From Ignisphaera sp. (GTDB taxonomy: Archaea > Thermoproteota > Thermoprotei_A > Sulfolobales > Ignisphaeraceae): 11,801 nt of DNA. Each line of letters starts with the position of its first letter. The first letter of the stretch is position 1. A program made the position numbers and the translations under genes. The notes beneath the pieces are model-generated. The model saw nothing but the letters and a program-made list of their open reading frames with translations. It made no database searches and was not told the DNA's origin. This document shows, in pieces, positions 1 to 11,801 of the stretch. Location: assembly GCA_038889075.1 (NCBI GenBank), contig JAWAHS010000019.1:1-11801 (forward strand). Direction: 5' to 3'.

Positions 1-899
1 ATTGCAATCAATTCCACTATTATTTTAGCTGATATAAATGCCGTTACCTCCGAGGGATCATATAGCGGTGTCATTTCAACCACGTCTACTGCATATTCAT
101 TTCCATTTACTATCTTATTTAGAATGCTCAGCAGCGTGTACGGACTTAATCCCAGTGGTTCAGGTGTCTGAACCCCAGGAGCATATGATGGATCCAGAAC
201 ATCGATATCTATGGAGATGTACTTTGCTTTACACATAGAGATCTCATTCTCTATAGTATTCATTAGTTTTGCGTCTACGGTATCCCCTACAATTTTAAAT
301 ATTTCTATATCTCTTTGTTTACTAATACCTCTATAGAATTCCTCTTCCTCCCTACTTACGGCTCTTGCTCCAATTATTATTATCCTTGGTTTTATTTCAT
401 CCCAAATTCTCCTAATGACTGTCGCATGGTTGTATATCGAACCCAGGTACTCACTTCTTAGATCTGTATGAGCATCAAAAACCACTAGACAGGGCTTATT
501 ATGATTCTTTATGTATGCTTTAAATGTTGCTAGAGTTAATGTGTGTTCTCCGCCTAATATAAATACCATTCTATTTCTCTTCCTAAAAATATTGTCCATA
601 ACAAGCTCGACCTTAGATATTGTCTCTATAAGATTTCCTGGAACGATTGAGATGTCACCTAAATCATTAACACCTATAGACTCAACATCAACACCATTTA
701 GAGCCGAGCATAGCTCTAACGATTTCGAGGCTCTTCTTATAGCTTTAGGTGCTAAAGCAGTACCACTTCTATATGAGGTTGACATATCTAAAGGTACTCC
801 AATAATAGAGTACGGTGTTTCACCTTCACTTTTATTAAATCCTAAAAAAGCCTCCGAGTCTGATAAGCTACTTATAAATATCTTATATTCGTCAACCAT
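1..899 (-). CDS. speB: Agmatinase (ureohydrolase family), 3' end truncated by the window edge
   Basis: Manual translation from ATG at 899 stays open to base 1: MVDEYKIF...GVPLDMSTSYRSGTALAPKAIR...LGGEHT...VFDAHTDLR...YNHAT...ISIDIDVLDPSYAPGVQTPEPLG...VDVVEMTPLYD. These are the GGxH, DAHxD and SxDxDxxDP metal-binding motifs of ureohydrolases. A GAGGT RBS lies 8 nt upstream. It is missing from the ORF track because there is no stop in the window. Confidence 0.93.
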   Translation of the reverse strand, partial: MVDEYKIFISSLSDSEAFLGFNKSEGETPYSIIGVPLDMSTSYRSGTALAPKAIRRASKSLELCSALNGVDVESIGVNDLGDISIVPGNLIETISKVELVMDNIFRKRNRMVFILGGEHTLTLATFKAYIKNHNKPCLVVFDAHTDLRSEYLGSIYNHATVIRRIWDEIKPRIIIIGARAVSREEEEFYRGISKQRDIEIFKIVGDTVDAKLMNTIENEISMCKAKYISIDIDVLDPSYAPGVQTPEPLGLSPYTLLSILNKIVNGNEYAVDVVEMTPLYDPSEVTAFISAKIIVELIA

Positions 900-1036
900 G
901 ATATCTTTACCTCAGATAAGTCTATTAACTTAAATACCCATAAGCGCTACCTTATAGTGGTAAAACTCTTAATAACCTATTAGTCCTAGATGTGTTAAAC
1001 CTTGTAGTATAGTGTATGGAAATATGGTGTCGTACA
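900..1036. promoter_or_regulatory. Divergent promoter region between speB and glyS
   Basis: AT-rich intergenic region with TATA-like TATTTAAG on - (~929-936) and AAAACT-CTTAATAA on + (~962-975). GGTG RBS at 1026-1029 precedes ATG 1037. Confidence 0.5.
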
Positions 1037-2797
1037 ATGAGCATCTCAAAATACGAAAAAGTAATTGATTATGCCATCAAGAGAGGGTTTCTATGGCAGT
1101 CATATGAAATATACGGTGGTCAATCAGGCTTTTATGACCTTGGACCACTCGGTGTTTTGCTGAAAAATAATATTATTGATTTATGGAGAGAATTTTTTGT
1201 AAAGAGGCATCAGGAATTTGTCGTAGAAATAGAAACTCCTATTATTACACCATCGATTGTATTTAGAGCTAGTGGCCATGAGGAGAATTTCACTGACTAT
1301 GCAGTCGAGTGTACACAGTGTCATAGAATATTTCGTGCAGATCATTTAATTGAGGAAAAACTCGGTATCTCTGTTGAAGGTCATCCAGCTGAAGAACTTG
1401 AAAAACTAATCAACGAAAACAACATCAGATGCCCTTTATGCAACGGTGTCCTGGGAAGCGTTCGAAAATTCCTTCTTCTATTCCAAACATATATAGGTCC
1501 ATACTCTCCCGAAAATCTAGCCTATCTAAGACCTGAAGCTGCACAGGGAATGTTTATAAATTTTAAACGCGTATATGATTTAGCTAAACGTAGATTACCG
1601 CTAGGTATTGTACAGATAGGTAAGGTTGCTCGAAATGAAATCTCACCTAGACAAGGTCCTATAAGACTTAGAGAATTTACTATAATGGAGATAGAGTTCT
1701 TCTACGACGAGGCTAATCCCAACTGTGATTTACTCTATGAATGTTGTAAAGAGGGGAAGATACGCATTCTAACTGCTGAACAGAGGCAAAGAGATGACGA
1801 TAAGCCAATAAGCATCTCACCTGCTGAGGCTTTTAGTGACGGCATTATAAAAAGTCCGTGGCTTGCATACTGGATGTGTATGGCAAATAATTTCATAAAT
1901 GCTCTAGGTGTTCCTAGTAGCTATAGCTATTTCGAGGAGAAGCTTCCACATGAACGTGCACACTACTCTAGGCAAACATTTGATCAAATGGTTATTGTTG
2001 ATAAATGGGGAAAGCTTGAGGTCTCCGGACATGCATATAGATACACCTATGATTTAGAAAGACATATCATGTTTAGCAAGGCTGATTTATATGCACTAAG
2101 ACAGTTGAAAACACCTAAAACAGTCAAAAAAATTAGCGTACAGTATGATAAGGTAGCCATTCTAAAATTGTTTGGATCTAGAGCTGGGGAAGTATTCAAA
2201 GCTATATCGGATATTAATAAGGATGAACTAGTAAAGATTATAAACTCTACACAATCTGACAGCATAGTATTGAACGGCATTGCAATACCGAAAAACATCT
2301 TTAGCATTGTAGAGACTGATGAACAGCAATGGGTAGAGAAATTCGTTCCATCGGTTTCGGAGCCTTCATTTGGTGCTGAAAGGCTTCTATACATAGCACT
2401 AGAATATGCATATAGTGAGCAAGGTGATAGAATTGTACTAAGGCTTCCTACTAGGATTGCGCCAATAAAGGTAGGTGTTACTCCACTTGTAGATAAGGAA
2501 CCTCTTAAACAGTTTGCAAGAAGAGTCTACGAAGCATTAAAGGAGCGACACTATGTCCTATATCTTGAGGGAGGCACTATAGGCAAAAAGTATGCTTTAG
2601 CTGATGAACTAGGCATACCATTTGTAGTTACTGTAGACTACGATAGTATCTCAAATAATGATGTTACTGTTAGAGATAGAGATAGTAGGAAGCAGATACG
2701 TGTACCATTCAATGATTTACTGAGGGTTATAGACCTAGGACTCAGCAACTACGACATATTCAGTATTGGTTATCCAGTAATTGAATACTATAGCTAA
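1037..2797 (+). CDS. glyS: Glycyl-tRNA synthetase, archaeal/eukaryotic homodimeric type
   Basis: Motifs EIYGG..GFYDLGPLG, LRPEAAQG, QIGKVARNEISPRQG.IRLREF, ERAHYS and EPSFGAER, plus a C-terminal anticodon-binding domain (IGKKYALADELGIPFVVTVD). The ORF track starts at 1016. ATG 1037 is preferred because of the GGTG RBS. Confidence 0.97.
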   Translation: MSISKYEKVIDYAIKRGFLWQSYEIYGGQSGFYDLGPLGVLLKNNIIDLWREFFVKRHQEFVVEIETPIITPSIVFRASGHEENFTDYAVECTQCHRIFRADHLIEEKLGISVEGHPAEELEKLINENNIRCPLCNGVLGSVRKFLLLFQTYIGPYSPENLAYLRPEAAQGMFINFKRVYDLAKRRLPLGIVQIGKVARNEISPRQGPIRLREFTIMEIEFFYDEANPNCDLLYECCKEGKIRILTAEQRQRDDDKPISISPAEAFSDGIIKSPWLAYWMCMANNFINALGVPSSYSYFEEKLPHERAHYSRQTFDQMVIVDKWGKLEVSGHAYRYTYDLERHIMFSKADLYALRQLKTPKTVKKISVQYDKVAILKLFGSRAGEVFKAISDINKDELVKIINSTQSDSIVLNGIAIPKNIFSIVETDEQQWVEKFVPSVSEPSFGAERLLYIALEYAYSEQGDRIVLRLPTRIAPIKVGVTPLVDKEPLKQFARRVYEALKERHYVLYLEGGTIGKKYALADELGIPFVVTVDYDSISNNDVTVRDRDSRKQIRVPFNDLLRVIDLGLSNYDIFSIGYPVIEYYS

Positions 2798-2864
2798 TCT
2801 TATAACCTTATTTACAAGCTATATTTATGAACAAATTTAATAGGTTAGCCGAAGGTTAGAAAAG

Positions 2865-3284
2865 ATGTCTGGGTCTTCAAAATTTGGTGAAAACACCATG
2901 TCTAGCGAACAAGGTGTTGAAGAGAAAGAAGAGATTAAAAAGGGCGAGGAGGGGGAGACTAAAATCGATGTTAAGAAGCTGGTCTCTATAATTCCTCCTC
3001 CAGCAACACTATTCTCGAAGCAGAAATCTGGTGTAAGAGAAAAAAGATTGAGATTGAAATACGATTCAAGTGTTAAAGAAGGTGAGGCAAAGGTGTCATC
3101 AATGCTAGCGAGGGAAATGGGTATAAAGGACTATATAGAGGTAACCGTTGCAGGTAGAAAAAGGATTAGACTGAAAGTTGTTATCGTAGATGAACTAGAC
3201 GCTAACTATGTAAATGTGAATCCTGACCAAATGAAACACCTCGGTGTTTCAGATAATAGCATATGTACCATAAGACCTGCATAG
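2865..3284 (+). CDS. Hypothetical protein, acidic N-tail plus stand-alone double-psi beta-barrel-like domain (Cdc48/VAT N-domain-like)
   Basis: Two repeats of the strand-helix-G-strand pattern: GEAKVSSMLAREMGIKDYIEV and NYVNVNPDQMKHLGVSDNSICTI. TATA TTTAATAG at 2836-2843. An alternative start ATG 2898 follows GGTGA (2886-2890). The fold call is pattern recognition. Confidence 0.75.
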   Translation: MSGSSKFGENTMSSEQGVEEKEEIKKGEEGETKIDVKKLVSIIPPPATLFSKQKSGVREKRLRLKYDSSVKEGEAKVSSMLAREMGIKDYIEVTVAGRKRIRLKVVIVDELDANYVNVNPDQMKHLGVSDNSICTIRPA

Positions 3285-3342
3285 AGGTTGCATAACCATA
3301 GAGAATGCCAAACTACTACAACTTTTAAAATCCTTTGAGGAA

Positions 3343-3726
3343 ATGGTGCATCTCCACACTAAGTATGTAGATAAATGTCGCAGGATAATGATTTCGGGAT
3401 CCGGATCGATAGAAGATAGATACGTCAGTAGATTACGTAAACTAAAAAGAATTTCAGAAAAACTTGAAAAGATCCTGCAGAACATGCTAGACGTAGTTCA
3501 TAGTGGTATCTATGACTCTGAAACTATTGAGAGGCTAGAACTCCTACTATTCTATGTTAATGAAACTGCTCTTCCAAGTGAAAGGGAAGTTTGGAAGAGG
3601 CTGGGAGATATACTGTTAGCAACGATAAATCTTGATTTGAGTGAACAGTTAAATAGAATTGACAAGGTGGAGCTGCTTACAAGATCCATACACAATATCA
3701 TCACCGGCCTTGATAGAGGTAATTAG
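3343..3726 (+). CDS. Hypothetical alpha-helical protein
   Basis: 127-aa ORF co-directional with its neighbours, with GAGG upstream and Leu/Ile/Glu/Arg amphipathic heptad-like composition. No family recognised and the start is uncertain. Confidence 0.7.
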   Translation: MVHLHTKYVDKCRRIMISGSGSIEDRYVSRLRKLKRISEKLEKILQNMLDVVHSGIYDSETIERLELLLFYVNETALPSEREVWKRLGDILLATINLDLSEQLNRIDKVELLTRSIHNIITGLDRGN

Positions 3727-3771
3727 CTTTCTATTCGACATATAGTTGTCAAAGAGCTTACAATCGTATCC

Positions 3772-3785
3772 CAAAGTTTATATAC
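3772..3785 (+). promoter_or_regulatory. BRE-TATA box upstream of the DUF47-like/endA pair
   Basis: CAAAG-TTTATATA, with TATA at 3778-3785, about 50 nt before ATG 3835. Confidence 0.6.
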
Positions 3786-3834
3786 CCTTATCTAAATTAG
3801 GTAAAGTAAACAAGTCTAGCTAGGCTTTATAAAA

Positions 3835-4506
3835 ATGAGCAGCGATGTAATTGAACCAAAACAACTCCAGATACAGGCTGTACTTGCTGAGGAAAATCTA
3901 ATAGAACAATTAGATGGCTTCTTCAATAGAATATCAAACATTATCAGCGAAATAGATGAGATGTTTAATGATATATTTCAGAATCGTTTAGAAGTTTTAA
4001 GGACAAGAATTATAAAGACGCTAGGGATGAGTAGAGATGCTAGAAACAGCTATAGGAATATCCTTGAATACGCTTCTCGAGTTGCTCCAGCACTAATAAC
4101 AGGTAGCTACTATCTCAATATGTTGAGCAACTCATCGGAATTGCTCGAAAGAATAAACAAATTATGCAAACACCTCTCCCTACTACAGTTTCCTCATCAG
4201 CCGAATGAAGATGTAATAATATCTGTTCAGAAGACATTAAATATGTTGGTAAGTAGCATAGATAGATTGCGAAATGTATTAAAAGCGTATGTAGAATTCC
4301 CAGTAAAGGCAGATGGACTTCTCGCTGAACTTCTAAAGATTGCCCAGAATCTCAGAACATATTACGACGAATCGTATCTGAGTCTAGGGAAGAGCAATAT
4401 TGATACCGTGTCCATCATTGTGATAGACGACATAGATGGTATTGTGGATTCATTTATAAAAATATATGAGGCTCTGTCATGTCTTCATGTAATGAAGAGA
4501 AGGTAG
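3835..4506 (+). CDS. Degenerate DUF47/PhoU-like tandem helical-bundle protein
   Basis: All-helical 223-aa protein. Segments ARNSYRNILEYASRVAPALITGSYYLNMLSNSSELLERI and IDDIDGIVDSFIKIYEAL follow the DUF47 helix pattern (D-x-I-x-D). The family call is inference. Confidence 0.6.
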   Translation: MSSDVIEPKQLQIQAVLAEENLIEQLDGFFNRISNIISEIDEMFNDIFQNRLEVLRTRIIKTLGMSRDARNSYRNILEYASRVAPALITGSYYLNMLSNSSELLERINKLCKHLSLLQFPHQPNEDVIISVQKTLNMLVSSIDRLRNVLKAYVEFPVKADGLLAELLKIAQNLRTYYDESYLSLGKSNIDTVSIIVIDDIDGIVDSFIKIYEALSCLHVMKRR

Positions 4507-5060
4507 GTAATGCAAAAAGAGTTTTCACCATAGGCCAAAAGGGTTTCCTATTCGATTCAACTCTGGGAAATGAATTATTTAAGAAATTCTTTGGCAAACC
4601 TATGGAGGAATCCAAGCCAAGTCCACTAAAAAATTACGATCAGCCATTTGTTTTATCTATCTATGAAGTATTCTATCTGTGTAGTAAGGGTCTAATTTCA
4701 GCCTCTATTGGCAGTAGCGAAGCTAAATGCAGCGAGCTTGCAGACTATGCTAATAAGGTTGTCAGCAATTTTAGCCTAAAGTACCACGTTTATAGGGATC
4801 TTAGAGAGAAGGGATATATAGTTAGAAGTGGTATGAAGTTTGGTGCTGATTTCACCGTATACGAGCTAGGCCCCGGATTAGAGCACGCACCATATGTCGT
4901 TACCGTAACTTCAGCTACGAATCTACTGCGATCCATAGATATTGTAGGTCTTGGTAGGCTTAGCCATAGTGTTAAGAAAAAGTCTGTACTTGCAGTCGTT
5001 GATAATAGAGAGCATCATACTGGAATTAACTATCTAGTTTTTAAGTGGGTTAAACCATAA
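4479..5060 (+). CDS. endA: tRNA-splicing endonuclease, catalytic alpha subunit, crenarchaeal type
   Basis: YHVYRDLREKGYIVRSGMKFGADFTVYELGPGLEHAPY...GRLSHSVKKK contains the Tyr-His-Lys triad. The N-terminal FFGKPMEESKPS...PFVLSIYEVFYL matches the crenarchaea-specific loop region. Overlaps the upstream gene by 28 nt. Confidence 0.96.
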   Translation: MSSCNEEKVGNAKRVFTIGQKGFLFDSTLGNELFKKFFGKPMEESKPSPLKNYDQPFVLSIYEVFYLCSKGLISASIGSSEAKCSELADYANKVVSNFSLKYHVYRDLREKGYIVRSGMKFGADFTVYELGPGLEHAPYVVTVTSATNLLRSIDIVGLGRLSHSVKKKSVLAVVDNREHHTGINYLVFKWVKP

Positions 5061-5103
5061 GCTTATCTGCTAGAGCTAGCTCTAAACTATTTGTTACTAA
5101 GCT

Positions 5104-5580
5104 ATGGTGAAGCTCTTGCGGAAACCAGAAAGAGGAAGCCCTTCTACAACATTACCGTCTAGGAGAGAAGAAAGATACACACATTATAGGGAAAGAGAAT
5201 ATAGAGAACGACGTGATAGCTATAGAGGAAGGGAAAAAGCTGAGGAGGCTACGCCTAAGCCCATAGGGTCTATGTGTAGCCCTCTATGTCCATTATTTAG
5301 ATGTAGCAAACGAGCGCTATTTATCAATTTAATAAATGGCAGATCTACACCATATTGTAACTGGGTTAACGATACTTGTATAGGCTACAAATGCCAATAT
5401 GCAACATGCGTATCCAGATACCTACTACCTGATGGTAAGTGTTTAACTGTAGTAAAAAATGTTTCAAAGAATGAAGATGAATTCATGAAAGAGCTTGAGA
5501 ATAGAAAGACCGATACCACTCTCAAAAGCTTACTGAGCCGAAGAGGAATCCACAAAGATTTAGGAATAGAAGATTTTTAA
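5104..5580 (+). CDS. Hypothetical Cys-rich (8 Cys) putative metal-binding protein with an Arg/Glu-rich N-terminus
   Basis: 158 aa with spacing Cx3Cx4Cx17C-x6-Cx4Cx4Cx10C and a low-complexity RREERYTHYREREYRERRDSYRGRE segment. Confidence 0.85.
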   Translation: MVKLLRKPERGSPSTTLPSRREERYTHYREREYRERRDSYRGREKAEEATPKPIGSMCSPLCPLFRCSKRALFINLINGRSTPYCNWVNDTCIGYKCQYATCVSRYLLPDGKCLTVVKNVSKNEDEFMKELENRKTDTTLKSLLSRRGIHKDLGIEDF

Positions 5581-5589
5581 CCAAATACT

Positions 5590-5610
5590 TTCTATATAAA
5601 TAGAATTTTT
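5590..5610 (+). terminator. Possible terminator: weak AT hairpin plus T5
   Basis: TTCTAT-ATAA-ATAGAA-TTTTT starts 10 nt after the stop at 5580, in the convergent intergenic region. Confidence 0.35.
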
Positions 5611-5716
5611 AAATCTAGGTAGAGTGCTACCTTCTTAGCTAATTTACGCCAAGACAATTACTTAAAACCAATCAAAGCAGTGCAATATAGAGCTGTATCC
5701 ATTTTAATTAGAAATA

Positions 5717-5771
5717 GTCTCAGACCTGCGCGAGTCTATCACTTTTCAACCCTTTCGAGCTTCATCATCAG
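5717..5771 (-). ncRNA. Box C/D guide sRNA immediately downstream of tRNA-Asn
   Basis: On -: C ATGATGA (5768-5762), 12-nt guide AGCTCGAAAGGG, D' TTGA (5749-5746), AAA, C' GTGATAG (5742-5736), 12-nt guide ACTCGCGCAGGT, D CTGA (5723-5720). This is canonical archaeal spacing in an intergenic location. Confidence 0.88.
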
Positions 5772-5782
5772 ATATAGAATAG

Positions 5783-5855
5783 CGCCGGGGGGAGGATTCG
5801 AACCTCCGACCACGGGGTTAACAGCCCCGCGCTCTACCAGCTGAGCTACCCCGGC
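5783..5855 (-). tRNA. tRNA-Asn (GTT), intronless, CCA not encoded
   Basis: GCCGGGGTAGCTCAGCTGGTAGAGCGCGGGGCTGTTAACCCCGTGGTCGGAGGTTCGAATCCTCCCCCCGGCG folds into a full cloverleaf with anticodon loop CT-GTT-AA and G discriminator. Confidence 0.98.
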
Positions 5856-5898
5856 ATGCTTGTAGCATACCGCTGAAAACTGATTTAGTGTGCTGAGG

Positions 5899-5911
5899 CT
5901 ATAAGCTTATG
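5899..5911 (-). promoter_or_regulatory. Putative BRE-TATA of the tRNA-Asn(-sRNA) transcript
   Basis: CATAAG-CTTATAG on -, about 45 nt upstream of the tRNA 5' end. The same CATAAGCTTAT precedes the 5104 ORF on + (5056-5066). Confidence 0.55.
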
Positions 5912-5933
5912 TAAATTCATCGGAAATGTTAGG

Positions 5934-6812
5934 TCACAGGCTTTCCAATAGCGCTACCATTGATATTAGAATACCATAAATTGGAGCAGTAAATGGATCT
6001 GTATTAATCCTCAGATCTATGAGCTGATCTCTTTTCAATCCCTTTCTTAAAGCTTCTATAATGAATTCATTTACAATGTGGTCTTCTACAGATGAATATG
6101 CTAGCATAAAGGTCTCATGTAGGTGGCTAGATTTCTTAAATAATTCTTTGAGTAATTCGCTGATCATATATATGTTGTAATTGTGTTCCTCAAGGTATTC
6201 ACCTAGAGGTATCATACTCTTAGACACAATTACATTTCTACACGATTTTAACAGCTTTATAGCATCCATATATCTGTTCGCAGCTTCTTCTACTATAGAG
6301 GAAACCTCTACTTCACTCTTTATCCTATTTATCCTAGCTACCATGTCTCCTATGTCTATAGCGATCTTTAGCGCTGCGAGTAGGGATGCTAATCTATATA
6401 TACCGCTATCTATTTCAATTATATCTATATTTTCAAATTCTCTGCTCCACTGCACCCTATGCTTCTCATACACTACGTTGGGGATTATGAATACCGATCT
6501 TATATTATTTAATAGTATAGAGTGTAGGAGTCTTAGAAGGGCCTTTTCATGCATGGCATCGCTATATACTATTGCTAGGTCTAGCGATTCGGCTATGTAG
6601 GGCAACACTACATTGTATGTATAATCGCCATCGATAGCCATTAGTGCGAGCTCAGGTTTCGATATCTTTAGAATTGATACTATATGCTGGACCAATCCGT
6701 ATGTTGCTCCACAATATGCAATTAGAATATTCTTTGAGCTTTTTATGATACTTGTGAGTTTTTGCGATATTCTTTGCGAAACATCTTCAGATCTCTTGGC
6801 AAACTCCATCAC
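5934..6812 (-). CDS. Hypothetical protein, possibly a degenerate SIS (sugar isomerase)-fold protein
   Basis: 292-aa ORF with alternating strand/helix pattern. KNILIAYCGATYGLVQHI...DLAIVYS resembles the first strand/loop and IxxS strand of SIS domains. The fold call is weak inference. Confidence 0.7.
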   Translation of the reverse strand: MMEFAKRSEDVSQRISQKLTSIIKSSKNILIAYCGATYGLVQHIVSILKISKPELALMAIDGDYTYNVVLPYIAESLDLAIVYSDAMHEKALLRLLHSILLNNIRSVFIIPNVVYEKHRVQWSREFENIDIIEIDSGIYRLASLLAALKIAIDIGDMVARINRIKSEVEVSSIVEEAANRYMDAIKLLKSCRNVIVSKSMIPLGEYLEEHNYNIYMISELLKELFKKSSHLHETFMLAYSSVEDHIVNEFIIEALRKGLKRDQLIDLRINTDPFTAPIYGILISMVALLESL

Positions 6813-6823
6813 TCTCGTTATAT

Positions 6824-7123
6824 CTATGTCTCTTCACCGCCGTATTCTTCCTCATGTAGAAGTTCTAGGAATAGCTCCTTATAGTACTCCTCTTTCTCCT
6901 GCTCTATCTCCTCCTTCTTCCTAGCTATTGTCTTGCCGTTACTTATAACTGAGGTTGTGTGAATCCTGGTGTTGGTAGACGTTGTGGTCTCTATTTTATA
7001 GGATGATGGCTGTTTGGAAATTTCGTATCCACATTTGGAACACTTCAATACTGCAGATCCTTCTCCTTTCTTAGTTGGTACTAGGAGATTTCCACATTTT
7101 GGACAAAATTGCGTAATCACCAC
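6824..7123 (-). CDS. TFS/RpoM-family paralog with N-terminal zinc ribbon only and an acidic C-terminal helix
   Basis: QFCPKCGNLLVP...LKCSKCGYE is the RpoM/TFS N-terminal ribbon. There is no second CxxC pair and no catalytic (R)SADE hairpin. The protein ends EEIEQEKEEYYKELFLELLHEEEYGGEET. Confidence 0.85.
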   Translation of the reverse strand: MVITQFCPKCGNLLVPTKKGEGSAVLKCSKCGYEISKQPSSYKIETTTSTNTRIHTTSVISNGKTIARKKEEIEQEKEEYYKELFLELLHEEEYGGEET

Positions 7124-7157
7124 CCAGCCATGTAGGTATGTACTTGCCTGTTCACAG

Positions 7158-7172
7158 CTTATAAATTTATGC
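7158..7172 (-). promoter_or_regulatory. BRE-TATA box for the TFS-like gene and its downstream partner
   Basis: GCATAAA-TTTATAAG on -, TATA at 7165-7158, about 35 nt before the start at 7123. Confidence 0.6.
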
Positions 7173-7188
7173 CTTTCTATTTCTCAAT

Positions 7189-7255
7189 CATCAGCGTCTA
7201 GCGTCTTCTTCATTACCTCTATAAGAGGCTACGTGGTAATACCTGTCATCATCTG
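7189..7255 (-). ncRNA. Box C/D guide sRNA nested in the 3' end of the 95-aa ORF
   Basis: On -: C ATGATGA (7252-7246), 12-nt guide CAGGTATTACCA, degenerate D' CGTA (7233-7230), stem GCCTCT-TAT-AGAGGT, C' ATGAAGA (7213-7207), 12-nt guide AGACGCTAGACG, D CTGA (7194-7191, TGA = ORF stop). Confidence 0.78.
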
Positions 7256-7478
7256 GTATAGCTATCTCTATATTTTTGTAGAACTCTATAATCTTTTTGC
7301 ACAGCTTAGCCTCGCTTACGCTAATACATGGTGTACACAGCATTTCTCCGGTATTGAGCTCTACTACTACCCTTTCTCTATTATCATCGCATACCGTGGT
7401 GGTGGCTGAGACTATCATCCCCATCATTGCATACCCTTCGATATCCATGGGTTTTACATATTCCTTGCAGCTATCCAT
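7191..7478 (-). CDS. Hypothetical protein, 95 aa
   Basis: Starts 3 nt after the argS stop and is co-directional. Contains 5 Cys including CTPC. No family recognised. Confidence 0.75.
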   Translation of the reverse strand: MDSCKEYVKPMDIEGYAMMGMIVSATTTVCDDNRERVVVELNTGEMLCTPCISVSEAKLCKKIIEFYKNIEIAIPDDDRYYHVASYRGNEEDARR

Positions 7479-7481
7479 TTT

Positions 7482-9398
7482 CTATAACCTCTCTAGAGGT
7501 TCTATGCCGAGTACCTTAAATGCTCCTCTAAGTATCTGGTTTACAGCATATGTTATAATGAGTTTAGAGTTTCTCACACCCTTAATAGTTTCAAGTACTA
7601 TAGGCTCCTCATCATACCATGAATTGAATTCGTCTGCTAGTCTAATTATATATGTGGCTATTATTGAGGGGTCTAGCTCGGTATAGCTCCTATAGAATAC
7701 ATCTGGGTACTCGGAGACCATTTTTACAAGTCTCCATCTTCTTGGGCTATTCTGTGCAAAGTGTAGATCTGCTTCCCTAAGAATTGTGCTCCAGTCAAGT
7801 TCTATACCAAGCTCCTTGGCTTTTCTAAACACACCTTCAGTTCTTGCAAATGTGTAGAGTAGATATGGTGCTGAGTTCCGTTCAAAGTTTAGCACATTAT
7901 CCCACGAAAATTTGACCGGTCTCGATGGATTTACTGAGAGTAGGTAGAATCTTACGGCTGCTATACCTATAGCCTCTGCTATTTCTTCAGATTTCATACC
8001 CCTCTTTTCAAGTTCTGCTAACGATCTCACCTTAGCTTCCTCGAGCACGCTATCTAGCGTTACTATTCTTCCTCTTCTAGAGCTCATCTTAGTTCCCTCC
8101 ATGTTTACTATTTCATAGCTATAGTGTACCAGGTTTTCTGCCTCTCTATGGTATCCCAGCATGTATAGAGCCAGTCTAAGCTGCGCCTGTGGCAGTATTT
8201 GTTCAGATGCAATGACATTTACAACCTTATCAGCATTGTAGTCTCGGAATTTTTTTATCGAGTATGCTATATCTCTAACTGTGTATAGCGATGTACCATC
8301 GCTTCTTAAGAGTACTAGTGGTGGTATCTCTAGATTCTTCGGTATTCTTAATCTATTCCTTATACCCTCTGTGGCTAGAATCTGTCTAAAATCTACTGCT
8401 ACGGTCCCTTTGTATTCAGATGATATCTTCTTTAAGGCTTCTATAACCTTGTCGACTTCTCCACTCCAAACCAGATCGCTTTCCCAATCCCATACATCTA
8501 TATCTGCTTTGAATCTCTTAAGCGTCTGGTTTAAACCTTCTATACACAGGGATACCGCCTTCCGGGCTACTCTACTAACCTCCTCTTCCCCCTCTTCGTA
8601 GCCTTTCATTATTCTCGAAATTTCCCTCTCAATATCTGTATTCTTTAACCTCTCTAGTATCGTATCGAATACATCAGGTGCCTGTTCTCTCAGTCTTGCC
8701 GCATCTACTATAAGACTATCTAATTCTCTCTGTATCTCTCTTCTCCTCTCTTCACCACCCTCTATCTCCAGCCTCCTCTTTAGGTATGTTATCTCTATAA
8801 TAGTGTTAGTTATAGCGTATACGAGTCCTATCCAATGGTCCGGCTTCATACCCTTTGGAGGCTCTACATCTCTCAGCTGGCTAATTCCTAGTGTTAGTAT
8901 GGCTACCTGTCTACCGACATCATTTATGTAGAATCTTGTCTGAACATCGTTACCTACAGCCCTATTTATATTGGCTATGAAGCTCCCTATTGCTGCATTT
9001 CTAGCCGCTCCTATATGTAGGGGGTGGACAGGGTTTGCAGAGACGTACTCAACAACGACCCTTTTCCTATCACTCTCTCTATAGACTCCGTATTCCGCTC
9101 CGCTAGATACTATCGATGTAAATACGAGCTCTGTAAATTTGGGTCTATTAAACCACATATTTACATACAATCCAACGATGTCTACCTTCGATATATAGCT
9201 ACAAGTTTCTACGGACTTTACTATCCTATCGATATACTCGTTTCCCTGTGGTAGTTTAGATAATACTATAGTTAGATCTCCGTATTCCTCACGAGGAATT
9301 GTAAGCGATTCTCTAACGGCAGCAGGTTCTATACCTAGCTCCCTCGATATCTCTATAGATATGCAACTCCTAATGGTTTCAAGAGGATTTGCAGTCAT
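7482..9398 (-). CDS. argS: Arginyl-tRNA synthetase
   Basis: VEYVSANPVHPLHIGAARN (HIGH-like), YINDVGRQ, LRSDGTSLYTVRDIAY, KMSSRRG (KMSKS-like), APYLLYTFAR and C-terminal LGIEPLERL. Confidence 0.98.
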   Translation of the reverse strand: MTANPLETIRSCISIEISRELGIEPAAVRESLTIPREEYGDLTIVLSKLPQGNEYIDRIVKSVETCSYISKVDIVGLYVNMWFNRPKFTELVFTSIVSSGAEYGVYRESDRKRVVVEYVSANPVHPLHIGAARNAAIGSFIANINRAVGNDVQTRFYINDVGRQVAILTLGISQLRDVEPPKGMKPDHWIGLVYAITNTIIEITYLKRRLEIEGGEERRREIQRELDSLIVDAARLREQAPDVFDTILERLKNTDIEREISRIMKGYEEGEEEVSRVARKAVSLCIEGLNQTLKRFKADIDVWDWESDLVWSGEVDKVIEALKKISSEYKGTVAVDFRQILATEGIRNRLRIPKNLEIPPLVLLRSDGTSLYTVRDIAYSIKKFRDYNADKVVNVIASEQILPQAQLRLALYMLGYHREAENLVHYSYEIVNMEGTKMSSRRGRIVTLDSVLEEAKVRSLAELEKRGMKSEEIAEAIGIAAVRFYLLSVNPSRPVKFSWDNVLNFERNSAPYLLYTFARTEGVFRKAKELGIELDWSTILREADLHFAQNSPRRWRLVKMVSEYPDVFYRSYTELDPSIIATYIIRLADEFNSWYDEEPIVLETIKGVRNSKLIITYAVNQILRGAFKVLGIEPLERL

Positions 9399-9400
9399 AT

Positions 9401-9703
9401 CTATGATACACCAAATTGGACTAGAGGATCTTCAAAATCTACTGGAAGGGGCTTTCCAGCAGAAGTAATCTCTTCATACCGTCTATCGAGAAATCCTATA
9501 AATATTGCACAGTTATCGAATTTACCATCATATGGACACCTCTCACCAAGTTTAAGGAAACAGAGCTTCTTCTTTCTATCATAGAATGGGCAGAGCTTGT
9601 GATGCAGTTTAGCACTTCTAATCATCTTCTGTATCCAAATCTTTTTCTGATCCTTTGATCTATCCGCTGATTGCATCTGTTTACTCGATTCATTACTATC
9701 CAA
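9401..9703 (-). CDS. Hypothetical 4-Cys protein, first gene of the argS operon
   Basis: TTG start preceded by a GAGGTG RBS. Cx9Cx7Cx8C (CPFYD...CFL...CPYD...C). Stop lies 2 nt before the argS ATG. Confidence 0.85.
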   Translation of the reverse strand: MDSNESSKQMQSADRSKDQKKIWIQKMIRSAKLHHKLCPFYDRKKKLCFLKLGERCPYDGKFDNCAIFIGFLDRRYEEITSAGKPLPVDFEDPLVQFGVS

Positions 9704-9892
9704 CTAAACCACCTCATTGCAGCAATGGTATGGCACCTCAGTTCTATTTTTAATATAAGAAGTATTATAAGCTAATACACAAACGGTGAACAAACCAATA
9801 AGTAAGGGAGATGCGGACACCAACCAATTGCTACATTAAAATGCTGTACCGATGAGCACTGTACAGGCCCACTTGTACCTGGCCCCACCCCA

Positions 9893-11801
<1,909 letters not shown>

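Follow-up and report, generated by a model that had tools for sequence, protein, structure and literature searches.

Box C/D small RNAs (sRNAs) aimed at the wobble nucleotide of a transfer RNA (tRNA) have been described from several archaea, and guides to U34 or C34 are already published for tRNAs other than the one considered here. Among the Pyrobaculum guides, sR27 is assigned to U34 of tRNA-Gln and sR46 to U34 of tRNA-Thr, and sR51 is printed as 'C24Glu' among the position-34 guides (Lui et al. 2018, PMC6009581). In Sulfolobus acidocaldarius, a 2′-O-methylated U34 (Um34) of tRNA-Gln has been observed by mass spectrometry, its guide dating from work of 2004, and for Pyrococcus furiosus snoRNAdb predicts a guide to G47 of tRNA-Leu(UAA), a methylation reported as not detected (both as cited in Wolff et al. 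2020, PMC7668247). Here we describe a related locus in a stretch of 11,801 nucleotides (nt) from Ignisphaera sp. (contig JAWAHS010000019.1, positions 1 to 11,801; hereafter the window). On its minus strand, positions 5768..5720 almost certainly encode a genuine archaeal box C/D sRNA, one guide of which very probably directs methylation to U34 of tRNA-Glu(UUC), and the other of which is predicted to act on tRNA-Leu.

As far as the published descriptions go, the locus resembles sR27, sR46 and sR51 in laying a 10-12-nt antisense over the anticodon loop of one isoacceptor, with the fifth guide nucleotide counted from the box (N+5) on position 34. It differs from them in that its target is U34 of the UUC isoacceptor, and in that its second guide looks functional and is directed at another tRNA family. 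A conserved guide RNA with two tRNA targets is less usual, given that in about 80% of tRNA-targeting sRNAs one of the guides is empty (Lui et al. 2018, PMC6009581). With the Sulfolobus tRNA-Gln guide, as cited, it shares the crenarchaeal setting, the box C/D type, the wobble uridine and a tRNA that reads a two-codon box; unlike here, that guide serves another tRNA, and both of its guides act on the same molecule. An analogy with this Sulfolobus case had already been drawn in an earlier note on this DNA, and it agrees with the available text of Wolff et al. 2020 (PMC7668247). The predicted P. furiosus guide addresses the same class of site as our second guide, a G before C48 at the foot of a long variable arm, although it is euryarchaeal and its methylation went undetected.

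In minus-strand order, the element consists of C box, 12-nt guide, D′ box, 3-nt spacer, C′ box, 12-nt guide and D box, together 49 nt from C box to D box. Read from 5771 down to 5717, CTG precedes the C box and GAC follows the D box. The C box (ATGATGA, 5762..5768) lies near the 5′ end, agrees with RUGAUGA and is conserved in the relatives found by BLAST; the D box (CTGA, 5720..5723) lies near the 3′ end, agrees with CUGA and also heads the sequence-model match. These two are canonical. The internal boxes are non-canonical, the D′ box being TTGA (a variant of CTGA, 5746..5749) and the C′ box GTGATAG (a variant of RTGATGA, 5736..5742), and they are able to form a kink-loop (K-loop) or kink-turn (K-turn). 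Between them stands the spacer AAA (5743..5745), which varies in sequence and length among homologues. Both guides fall within the usual length of about 10-12 nt: the D′ guide, AGCTCGAAAGGG, occupies 5750..5761 and the D guide, ACTCGCGCAGGT, occupies 5724..5735, all on the minus strand. The four boxes, the two 12-nt guides, the 49-nt span, and the D′ guide with its reverse complement had all been given correctly by the earlier note. Its account was incomplete in leaving out the strand, the non-canonical character of D′ and C′, the neighbouring tRNA-Asn gene and the tRNA-Leu target.

The case for tRNA-Glu(UUC) rests on the match between the D′ guide and the anticodon arm. The tRNA set was obtained by running ARAGORN on the whole genome, which gave 45 calls, one of them false (inside the ribosomal RNA (rRNA) operon), leaving 44 tRNAs. 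The sole tRNA-Glu(TTC) gene of this genome (C2:106667-106744, minus strand) has the anticodon arm GCCTTTCGAGCC and contains CCTTTCGAGC, which provides ten contiguous Watson-Crick pairs between C31-C40 and guide positions N+2 to N+11. The earlier note had predicted a 10-base-pair duplex with N+5 on U34 and proposed a tRNA scan for the complementary sequence; the only tRNA-Glu(TTC) gene bears this out. N+5 is an A (window position 5754) opposite U34, and N+1 and N+12 are mismatched. Across the 44 tRNAs and the rRNA operon of the genome, this is the only site with two or fewer mismatches. Further, when the D′ guide was shuffled 1000 times, just 11 of the shuffles gave 10 or more consecutive Watson-Crick pairs through N+5 with the same tRNAs and rRNA. 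The tRNA-Glu(CTC) and tRNA-Asp(GTC) genes have the same arm and differ at position 34, so that they are mismatched exactly at N+5. Since N+5 must be Watson-Crick paired for methylation (Lui et al. 2018, PMC6009581), the guide is expected to be specific to the UUC isoacceptor.

Comparison across lineages points to the same ten nucleotides. The D′ core was fixed by the search pattern in a set of 121 unique homologous sequences, and left unfixed in the BLAST and model searches described below. Within the 121 sequences the outer positions vary widely, N+1 being A in 9, C in 14, G in 53 and T in 45, and N+12 being A in 43, C in 5, G in 59 and T in 14. Across lineages, the constrained part of the D′ guide is exactly the ten pairing positions. 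Where the core does change, the changes keep G.U pairing: C to U opposite G37 (L016; genomes G052 and G161) and A to G opposite U35 (G136 and G128). In the model search, in which N+5 was unconstrained, the N+5 base of the D′ guide is identical in 18 of the 19 matches from the same order. The tRNA-Glu(UUC) arm is itself GCCTTTCGAGCC in every genome where the gene was recovered, that is, in five lineages and in G052, G161, G136 and G159, and pairing with the arm is kept in all five further named lineages. G128 stands outside these counts, its tRNA-Glu(UUC) not having been recovered; ARAGORN mislabels the intron-rich tRNAs there.

Could the true target of the D′ guide lie elsewhere, with the tRNA-Glu match a coincidence? 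An exact 12/12 complement does exist at C19:15877-15866 (minus strand), in an AT-rich stretch some 410 nt upstream of tRNA-Ala(TGC), and the 187 rRNA bases that read N in this genome could hide a site. We judge the C19 match to be due to chance, because the outer guide positions are not conserved and because, by our own calculation, chance would supply about 0.1-0.2 exact 12-mers per genome. The rRNA operon, with those 187 bases as N, contains no target for the guides. Neither guide finds a site scoring 18 or more in unmasked rRNA of congeners (the 5′ half of 23S from four genomes and 16S from two), apart from a single weak 18 and a 21 that lies upstream of a 23S and is not conserved; for the D′ guide there is nothing at 18 or above but the weak 18. 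Given, moreover, that N+1 and N+12 vary freely among homologues while only the 10-nt tRNA-Glu core is constrained, and that the arm matches in every lineage checked, a coincidental match is very improbable.

Guidance of U34 methylation in tRNA-Glu(UUC) thus remains the probable function of the D′ guide, judged from sequence comparison. Two points weigh against it. Um34 in tRNA-Glu is not reported in the available text of Wolff et al. 2020 (PMC7668247), and, because the tRNA-Glu arm is invariant, the D′ guide displays conservation and wobble-tolerant drift, with no true compensatory change. One genome outside the order, G159, a weaker match to the model, departs from the common pattern. Its D′ guide GCTCGAGAGG has G at N+5, and the guide GGCTCGAGAGGT forms 11 Watson-Crick pairs and one G.U pair with tRNA-Glu(CUC), placed on C34. 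This would be a target of the kind printed for Pyrobaculum sR51.

The second guide becomes legible only when G.U pairs are admitted. With Watson-Crick matching alone, no tRNA or rRNA of the genome matches the D guide at 10 or more of the 12 positions. With G.U allowed, it pairs over all 12 positions with GCCTGCGTGGGT, through nine Watson-Crick and three G.U pairs. All five true tRNA-Leu genes of the genome carry this sequence (the pairing scan listed three, each fully paired), which takes in the variable arm's 3′ strand, C48, the 5′ T-stem strand and U54. N+5 of the D guide is a C (window position 5728) and faces the G immediately 5′ of C48, here termed G47. On these grounds, tRNA-Leu, in all five genes, is a conserved second target, predicted from sequence and new here, and methylation of its G47 appears fairly likely.

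Within this one genome the evidence for tRNA-Leu is weak, since 23 of 1000 shuffled D guides are fully paired 12/12 somewhere, and the comparative evidence is stronger. The pattern that gathered the homologues left the D guide free, and positions N+2 to N+11 are nevertheless conserved. The guide is 12 nt long in 119 of the 121 unique homologues, and N+5 is C in 117 of those 119. Among the at least 119 pattern matches, unrelated D guides occur in only two loci (L056 and L082), both on contigs of metagenome-assembled genomes (MAGs) titled 'Candidatus Woesearchaeota', which have the same D′ guide; the anticodon arm of tRNA-Glu(UUC) in the L056 genome (0.7 Mb) is likewise the same.

Further, the D guide co-varies with positions 49 and 50 of the tRNA-Leu T-stem across lineages. 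In our genome, in Thermogladius and in a Fervidicoccaceae MAG, tRNA-Leu has G,U at these positions and the guide has C,G, giving G-C and U.G pairs. Caldisphaera has the same G,U opposite C,A in the guide, giving G-C and U-A and a duplex of 11 Watson-Crick pairs and one G.U overall. In Metallosphaera yellowstonensis, G,C faces C,G (G-C and C-G), and in two Thermofilum-type genomes (G041 and G042) C,C faces G,G (C-G at both positions).

Several observations weigh against methylation at G47. In our genome the duplex has three G.U pairs and just six contiguous Watson-Crick pairs through N+5, and fully paired shuffles also occur, as noted above. Both Thermofilum-type genomes have a mismatch at N+3, G043 is mismatched at N+7, and the degenerate, 11-nt D guide of G045 has no tRNA-Leu match at all. 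Besides the undetected methylation in P. furiosus, the available text of Wolff et al. 2020 (PMC7668247) does not report Gm47 in tRNA-Leu. As to the remaining variation, the G044 duplex contains two adjacent G.U pairs, and one of the five Metallosphaera tRNA-Leu genes is unmatched by the D guide.

The same observations would suit a real box C/D sRNA that works mainly as a folding chaperone or quality-control partner, with methylation weak or absent at one or both sites. Chaperone roles of such guides are discussed in Dennis et al. 2015, in the part of that work available, and the idea is most plausible for the D guide on tRNA-Leu, with its three G.U pairs, its short Watson-Crick run, the N+3 and N+7 mismatches of some lineages and the P. 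furiosus precedent. It sits poorly with the Watson-Crick pairing of N+5 in both duplexes, the uniformity of N+5 in the D guides and in the D′ guides of the same order, and the way in which the D guide tracks changes in the tRNA-Leu T-stem. We therefore regard a mainly non-methylating role as unlikely.

The internal boxes offer another comparative signal. The first base of D′ and the sixth of C′ (D′1 and C′6) were unconstrained by the pattern that gathered the sequences, and they form a Watson-Crick pair in 111 of the 121 unique sequences (C:G in 67, U:A in 23, A:U in 20 and G:C in 1). The other ten combinations are A:G in 7 and C:U, C:A and U:G in 1 each. In the window, A at position 6 of C′ pairs with T at position 1 of D′. 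Given this covariation, UUGA and GUGAUAG are here a compensated K-loop pair and no sign of decay. Some homologues (L045, L059, L061, L067, L147, L023/L060 and L255, with Acidilobaceae-titled and other sources) have long D′-C′ spacers of 13-30 nt with a small GC-rich hairpin, by which the internal K-loop would become a stem-bearing K-turn.

How widely the family is distributed was assessed in three ways. BLAST of the genomes of 40 relatives and of our own, followed by short-query BLAST on the loci, found an element with the same architecture and guides in 26 of the 40 relatives, or 27 genomes including ours. In an alignment of these BLAST-found relatives, the boxes and both guides are conserved, in contrast to the D′-C′ spacer and the two flanks. 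Public genomes, one per species, were scanned with a pattern that fixed just the cores of the boxes and the ten core nucleotides of the D′ guide, leaving free the first two D′ bases, the last three C′ bases and the D guide; at least 119 further stretches matched. Titles among the matches listed include Ignisphaera, Zestosphaera, Thermogladius, Acidilobus, Caldisphaera, Fervidicoccaceae, Thermofilaceae, Thermofilum, Metallosphaera yellowstonensis, Candidatus Acidianus copahuensis and many MAGs. Several loci titled Ignisphaera sp. have sRNAs identical to those of relatives from the same genus.

The third approach was a sequence model built from the alignment of the 121 unique sequences. It finds exactly one copy in our genome (E 1.7e-14) and matches 28 of 151 sampled genomes of the phylum: our own, all 19 sampled from the same order and 8 of 131 from outside the order. 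Homologues were found in all five sampled genomes of one family (f13). Weak matches in G097, G182 and G057, all outside the order, and the second matches in G159 and G192 have different guides and were set aside as other sRNAs. In the alignment, the TGA of the C box and the G that follows are invariant, the scan pattern having required them in 98 of the 121 rows, and the D box is invariant only because the regular expression that selected the rows demanded CTGA. Homologues with non-canonical D boxes (CGGA, TTGA or CCGA) do occur (L251, L252 (G131, G146), L254-L257 and L258), and because the CTGA-based pattern missed them, the figure of at least 119 loci underestimates the family. One locus from the same order, L259 (G032:C1:806798-806833, family f9), has the family's D guide CCCGCGCAGGG together with an unrelated D′ guide, GAGTTTCAAGGG, which suggests from its sequence that one guide was replaced and the tRNA-Leu guide kept.

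This breadth also bears on the suggestion that there is no gene here at all, and that a resemblance to the boxes arose by chance in the trailer or terminator region at the 3′ side of a tRNA-Asn gene. A tRNA-Asn(GTT) gene (5783..5855, minus strand; ARAGORN, and Rfam RF00005 at 75.8 bits) does end 14 nt before the C box on the same strand. The fold of the element is no better than that of shuffles (z = -0.55), with no stable structure predicted, and weak folding is normal for a box C/D RNA. A cmscan of the whole window against Rfam at E up to 1 gave three matches, to large-subunit rRNA, tRNA and a spurious internal ribosome entry site, and none to a box C/D family; the description of the sRNA as unannotated, which goes back to the earlier note, therefore holds against Rfam, the one resource consulted for it. 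There is also no terminal stem flanking the C and D boxes, a further point against the element. With no Rfam family and no significant fold, gene status rests on the comparative data. In 113 of the family's 145 rows this RNA is conserved with no tRNA in the 150 nt upstream, it is spread over several families and orders, and its boxes co-vary. Taken together, these comparisons effectively refute the chance-pattern explanation already, and we hold it to be extremely improbable.

We propose that this box C/D sRNA is co-transcribed with the upstream tRNA-Asn and that its 5′ end would be freed by tRNA 3′ processing. By analogy with the family, it would assemble with L7Ae, Nop5 and fibrillarin. Under the N+5 rule, fibrillarin would then 2′-O-methylate the wobble U34 of tRNA-Glu(UUC) only. 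The D guide, pairing in every tRNA-Leu with C48 and with the sequence on either side of it (the variable arm's 3′ side and the 5′ T-stem strand), would place a methyl group on G47. The likely outcomes would be a rigid wobble nucleotide that favours faithful decoding of GAA and GAG, and a tRNA-Leu core stabilised at high temperature. Taken as a whole, an sRNA with U34 of tRNA-Glu and G47 of tRNA-Leu as its targets is the best explanation of the locus, and we consider it highly plausible.

Beyond this, we lean somewhat towards regarding the family as an ancient, order-wide dual-tRNA guide, in which Um34 of tRNA-Glu(UUC) and Gm47 of every tRNA-Leu would have been coupled for a long time and only the D′ guide would occasionally have been re-aimed. 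Sequence comparison offers two candidates for such re-aiming: the lineage of G159, in which the guide appears directed to C34 of tRNA-Glu(CUC), and the family of L259, with its unrelated D′ guide.

The proposed biogenesis has parallels among the dicistronic tRNA-C/D box sRNA genes described for tRNA-Ser in Ignicoccus hospitalis, tRNA-Pro in Thermoproteus tenax and tRNA-Val in Nanoarchaeum equitans (Tripp et al. 2017, in Breuer et al. 2021, PMC7994747). In these, as here, the sRNA lies directly downstream of the tRNA gene, hence the proposal that maturation of the tRNA at its 3′ end generates the 5′ end of the sRNA (Breuer et al. 2021, PMC7994747). Unlike the cases in the available text, the partner here is tRNA-Asn, which is not a target of the sRNA, and the linkage is confined to relatives from the organism's own family. 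The 14-nt spacer that separates the C box from the end of tRNA-Asn (5769..5782, minus strand) is not conserved among relatives and is too short for a separate archaeal promoter, and the tRNA-Asn gene is the likely source both of the promoter and, via 3′ processing, of the sRNA 5′ end. A scan of 5600-5960 for promoters and terminators of bacterial type found nothing, archaeal promoters being outside its reach. A tRNA-Asn stands 9-68 nt upstream on the same strand in 32 of the 145 family rows, all of them from relatives within the family. The linkage is thus lineage-specific and not essential to the RNA.

Of the three expected partner proteins, the two that were searched for are encoded in the genome. 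Fibrillarin (PF01269, 341.5 bits, C17:11857-12528) and Nop5 (PF01798, 250.5 bits, C17:10992-11669) are specified by adjoining genes. Expression data speak to the region more than to the RNA. In one RNA run, a metatranscriptome among the 24 runs listed, 59% of sampled words from a 1.3-kb stretch around the locus were present. Contigs from the metatranscriptome cover 5100-5568 and 6097-6400, which belong to the flanking protein genes, and none covers 5569-6096. Such contigs cannot capture a 50-nt RNA in any case, so that the gap is evidence neither for nor against the sRNA. From a similar habitat, a DNA run yielded a 6.3-kb contig that matches the window only at 5720-5772, with one difference, and this fits conservation of the sRNA in a neighbouring organism.

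In kind this is an ordinary RNA; the family is widespread, and the locus is a newly read case of it. Neither target, Um34 of tRNA-Glu(UUC) or Gm47 of tRNA-Leu, appears in the main text of the searchable literature. A literature search for the guide and target 10-mers returned nothing relevant, the matches listed being unrelated uses and none of them archaeal. The sRNA catalogue of Dennis et al. 2015, which includes S. acidocaldarius among other species, gives tRNA complementarities, in the text available, as 'not compiled'. Several monomethylated nucleotides of Sulfolobus tRNAs still await guide RNAs, according to the available text of Wolff et al. 2020 (PMC7668247), and the family is a candidate guide for two such sites.

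The analysis adds a well-supported gene to an unannotated genome of a hot-spring archaeon, and assigns concrete predicted targets to a guide family present throughout a large group of hyperthermophilic Crenarchaeota. The covariation of the D guide with the tRNA-Leu T-stem is a clean computational example of guide-target co-evolution. Understanding of how box C/D ribonucleoproteins function is unchanged. If both targets are true, loss of this single gene in a member of the Sulfolobaceae would bear directly on the role of wobble ribose methylation in the split codon box of Glu and Asp at high temperature.

The sRNA lies in an intergenic region extending from 5581 to 5933, in a neighbourhood rich in genes for tRNA and translation. 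The open reading frames directly flanking it, at 5104-5580 (plus strand) and 5934-6812 (minus strand), have no Pfam match. Genes at 4479-5060 (plus), 7482-9398 (minus), 1016-2797 (plus) and 6824-7123 (minus) of the window make up the surrounding set, which includes a tRNA-splicing endonuclease (PF01974, PF02778), an arginyl-tRNA synthetase (PF00750, DALR), a class II aminoacyl-tRNA synthetase with an HGTP anticodon-binding domain, and an RPB9/TFS-type zinc-ribbon protein. An ARAGORN call of a 'tRNA-Thr with 1247-nt intron' inside the rRNA operon is the false one mentioned above. The region from 9891 to 11801 of the window (minus strand), and beyond it on C19, holds the 3′ two-thirds of the 23S rRNA, with 16S rRNA and tRNA-Ala(TGC) upstream on the same contig and two stretches of the operon read as N.

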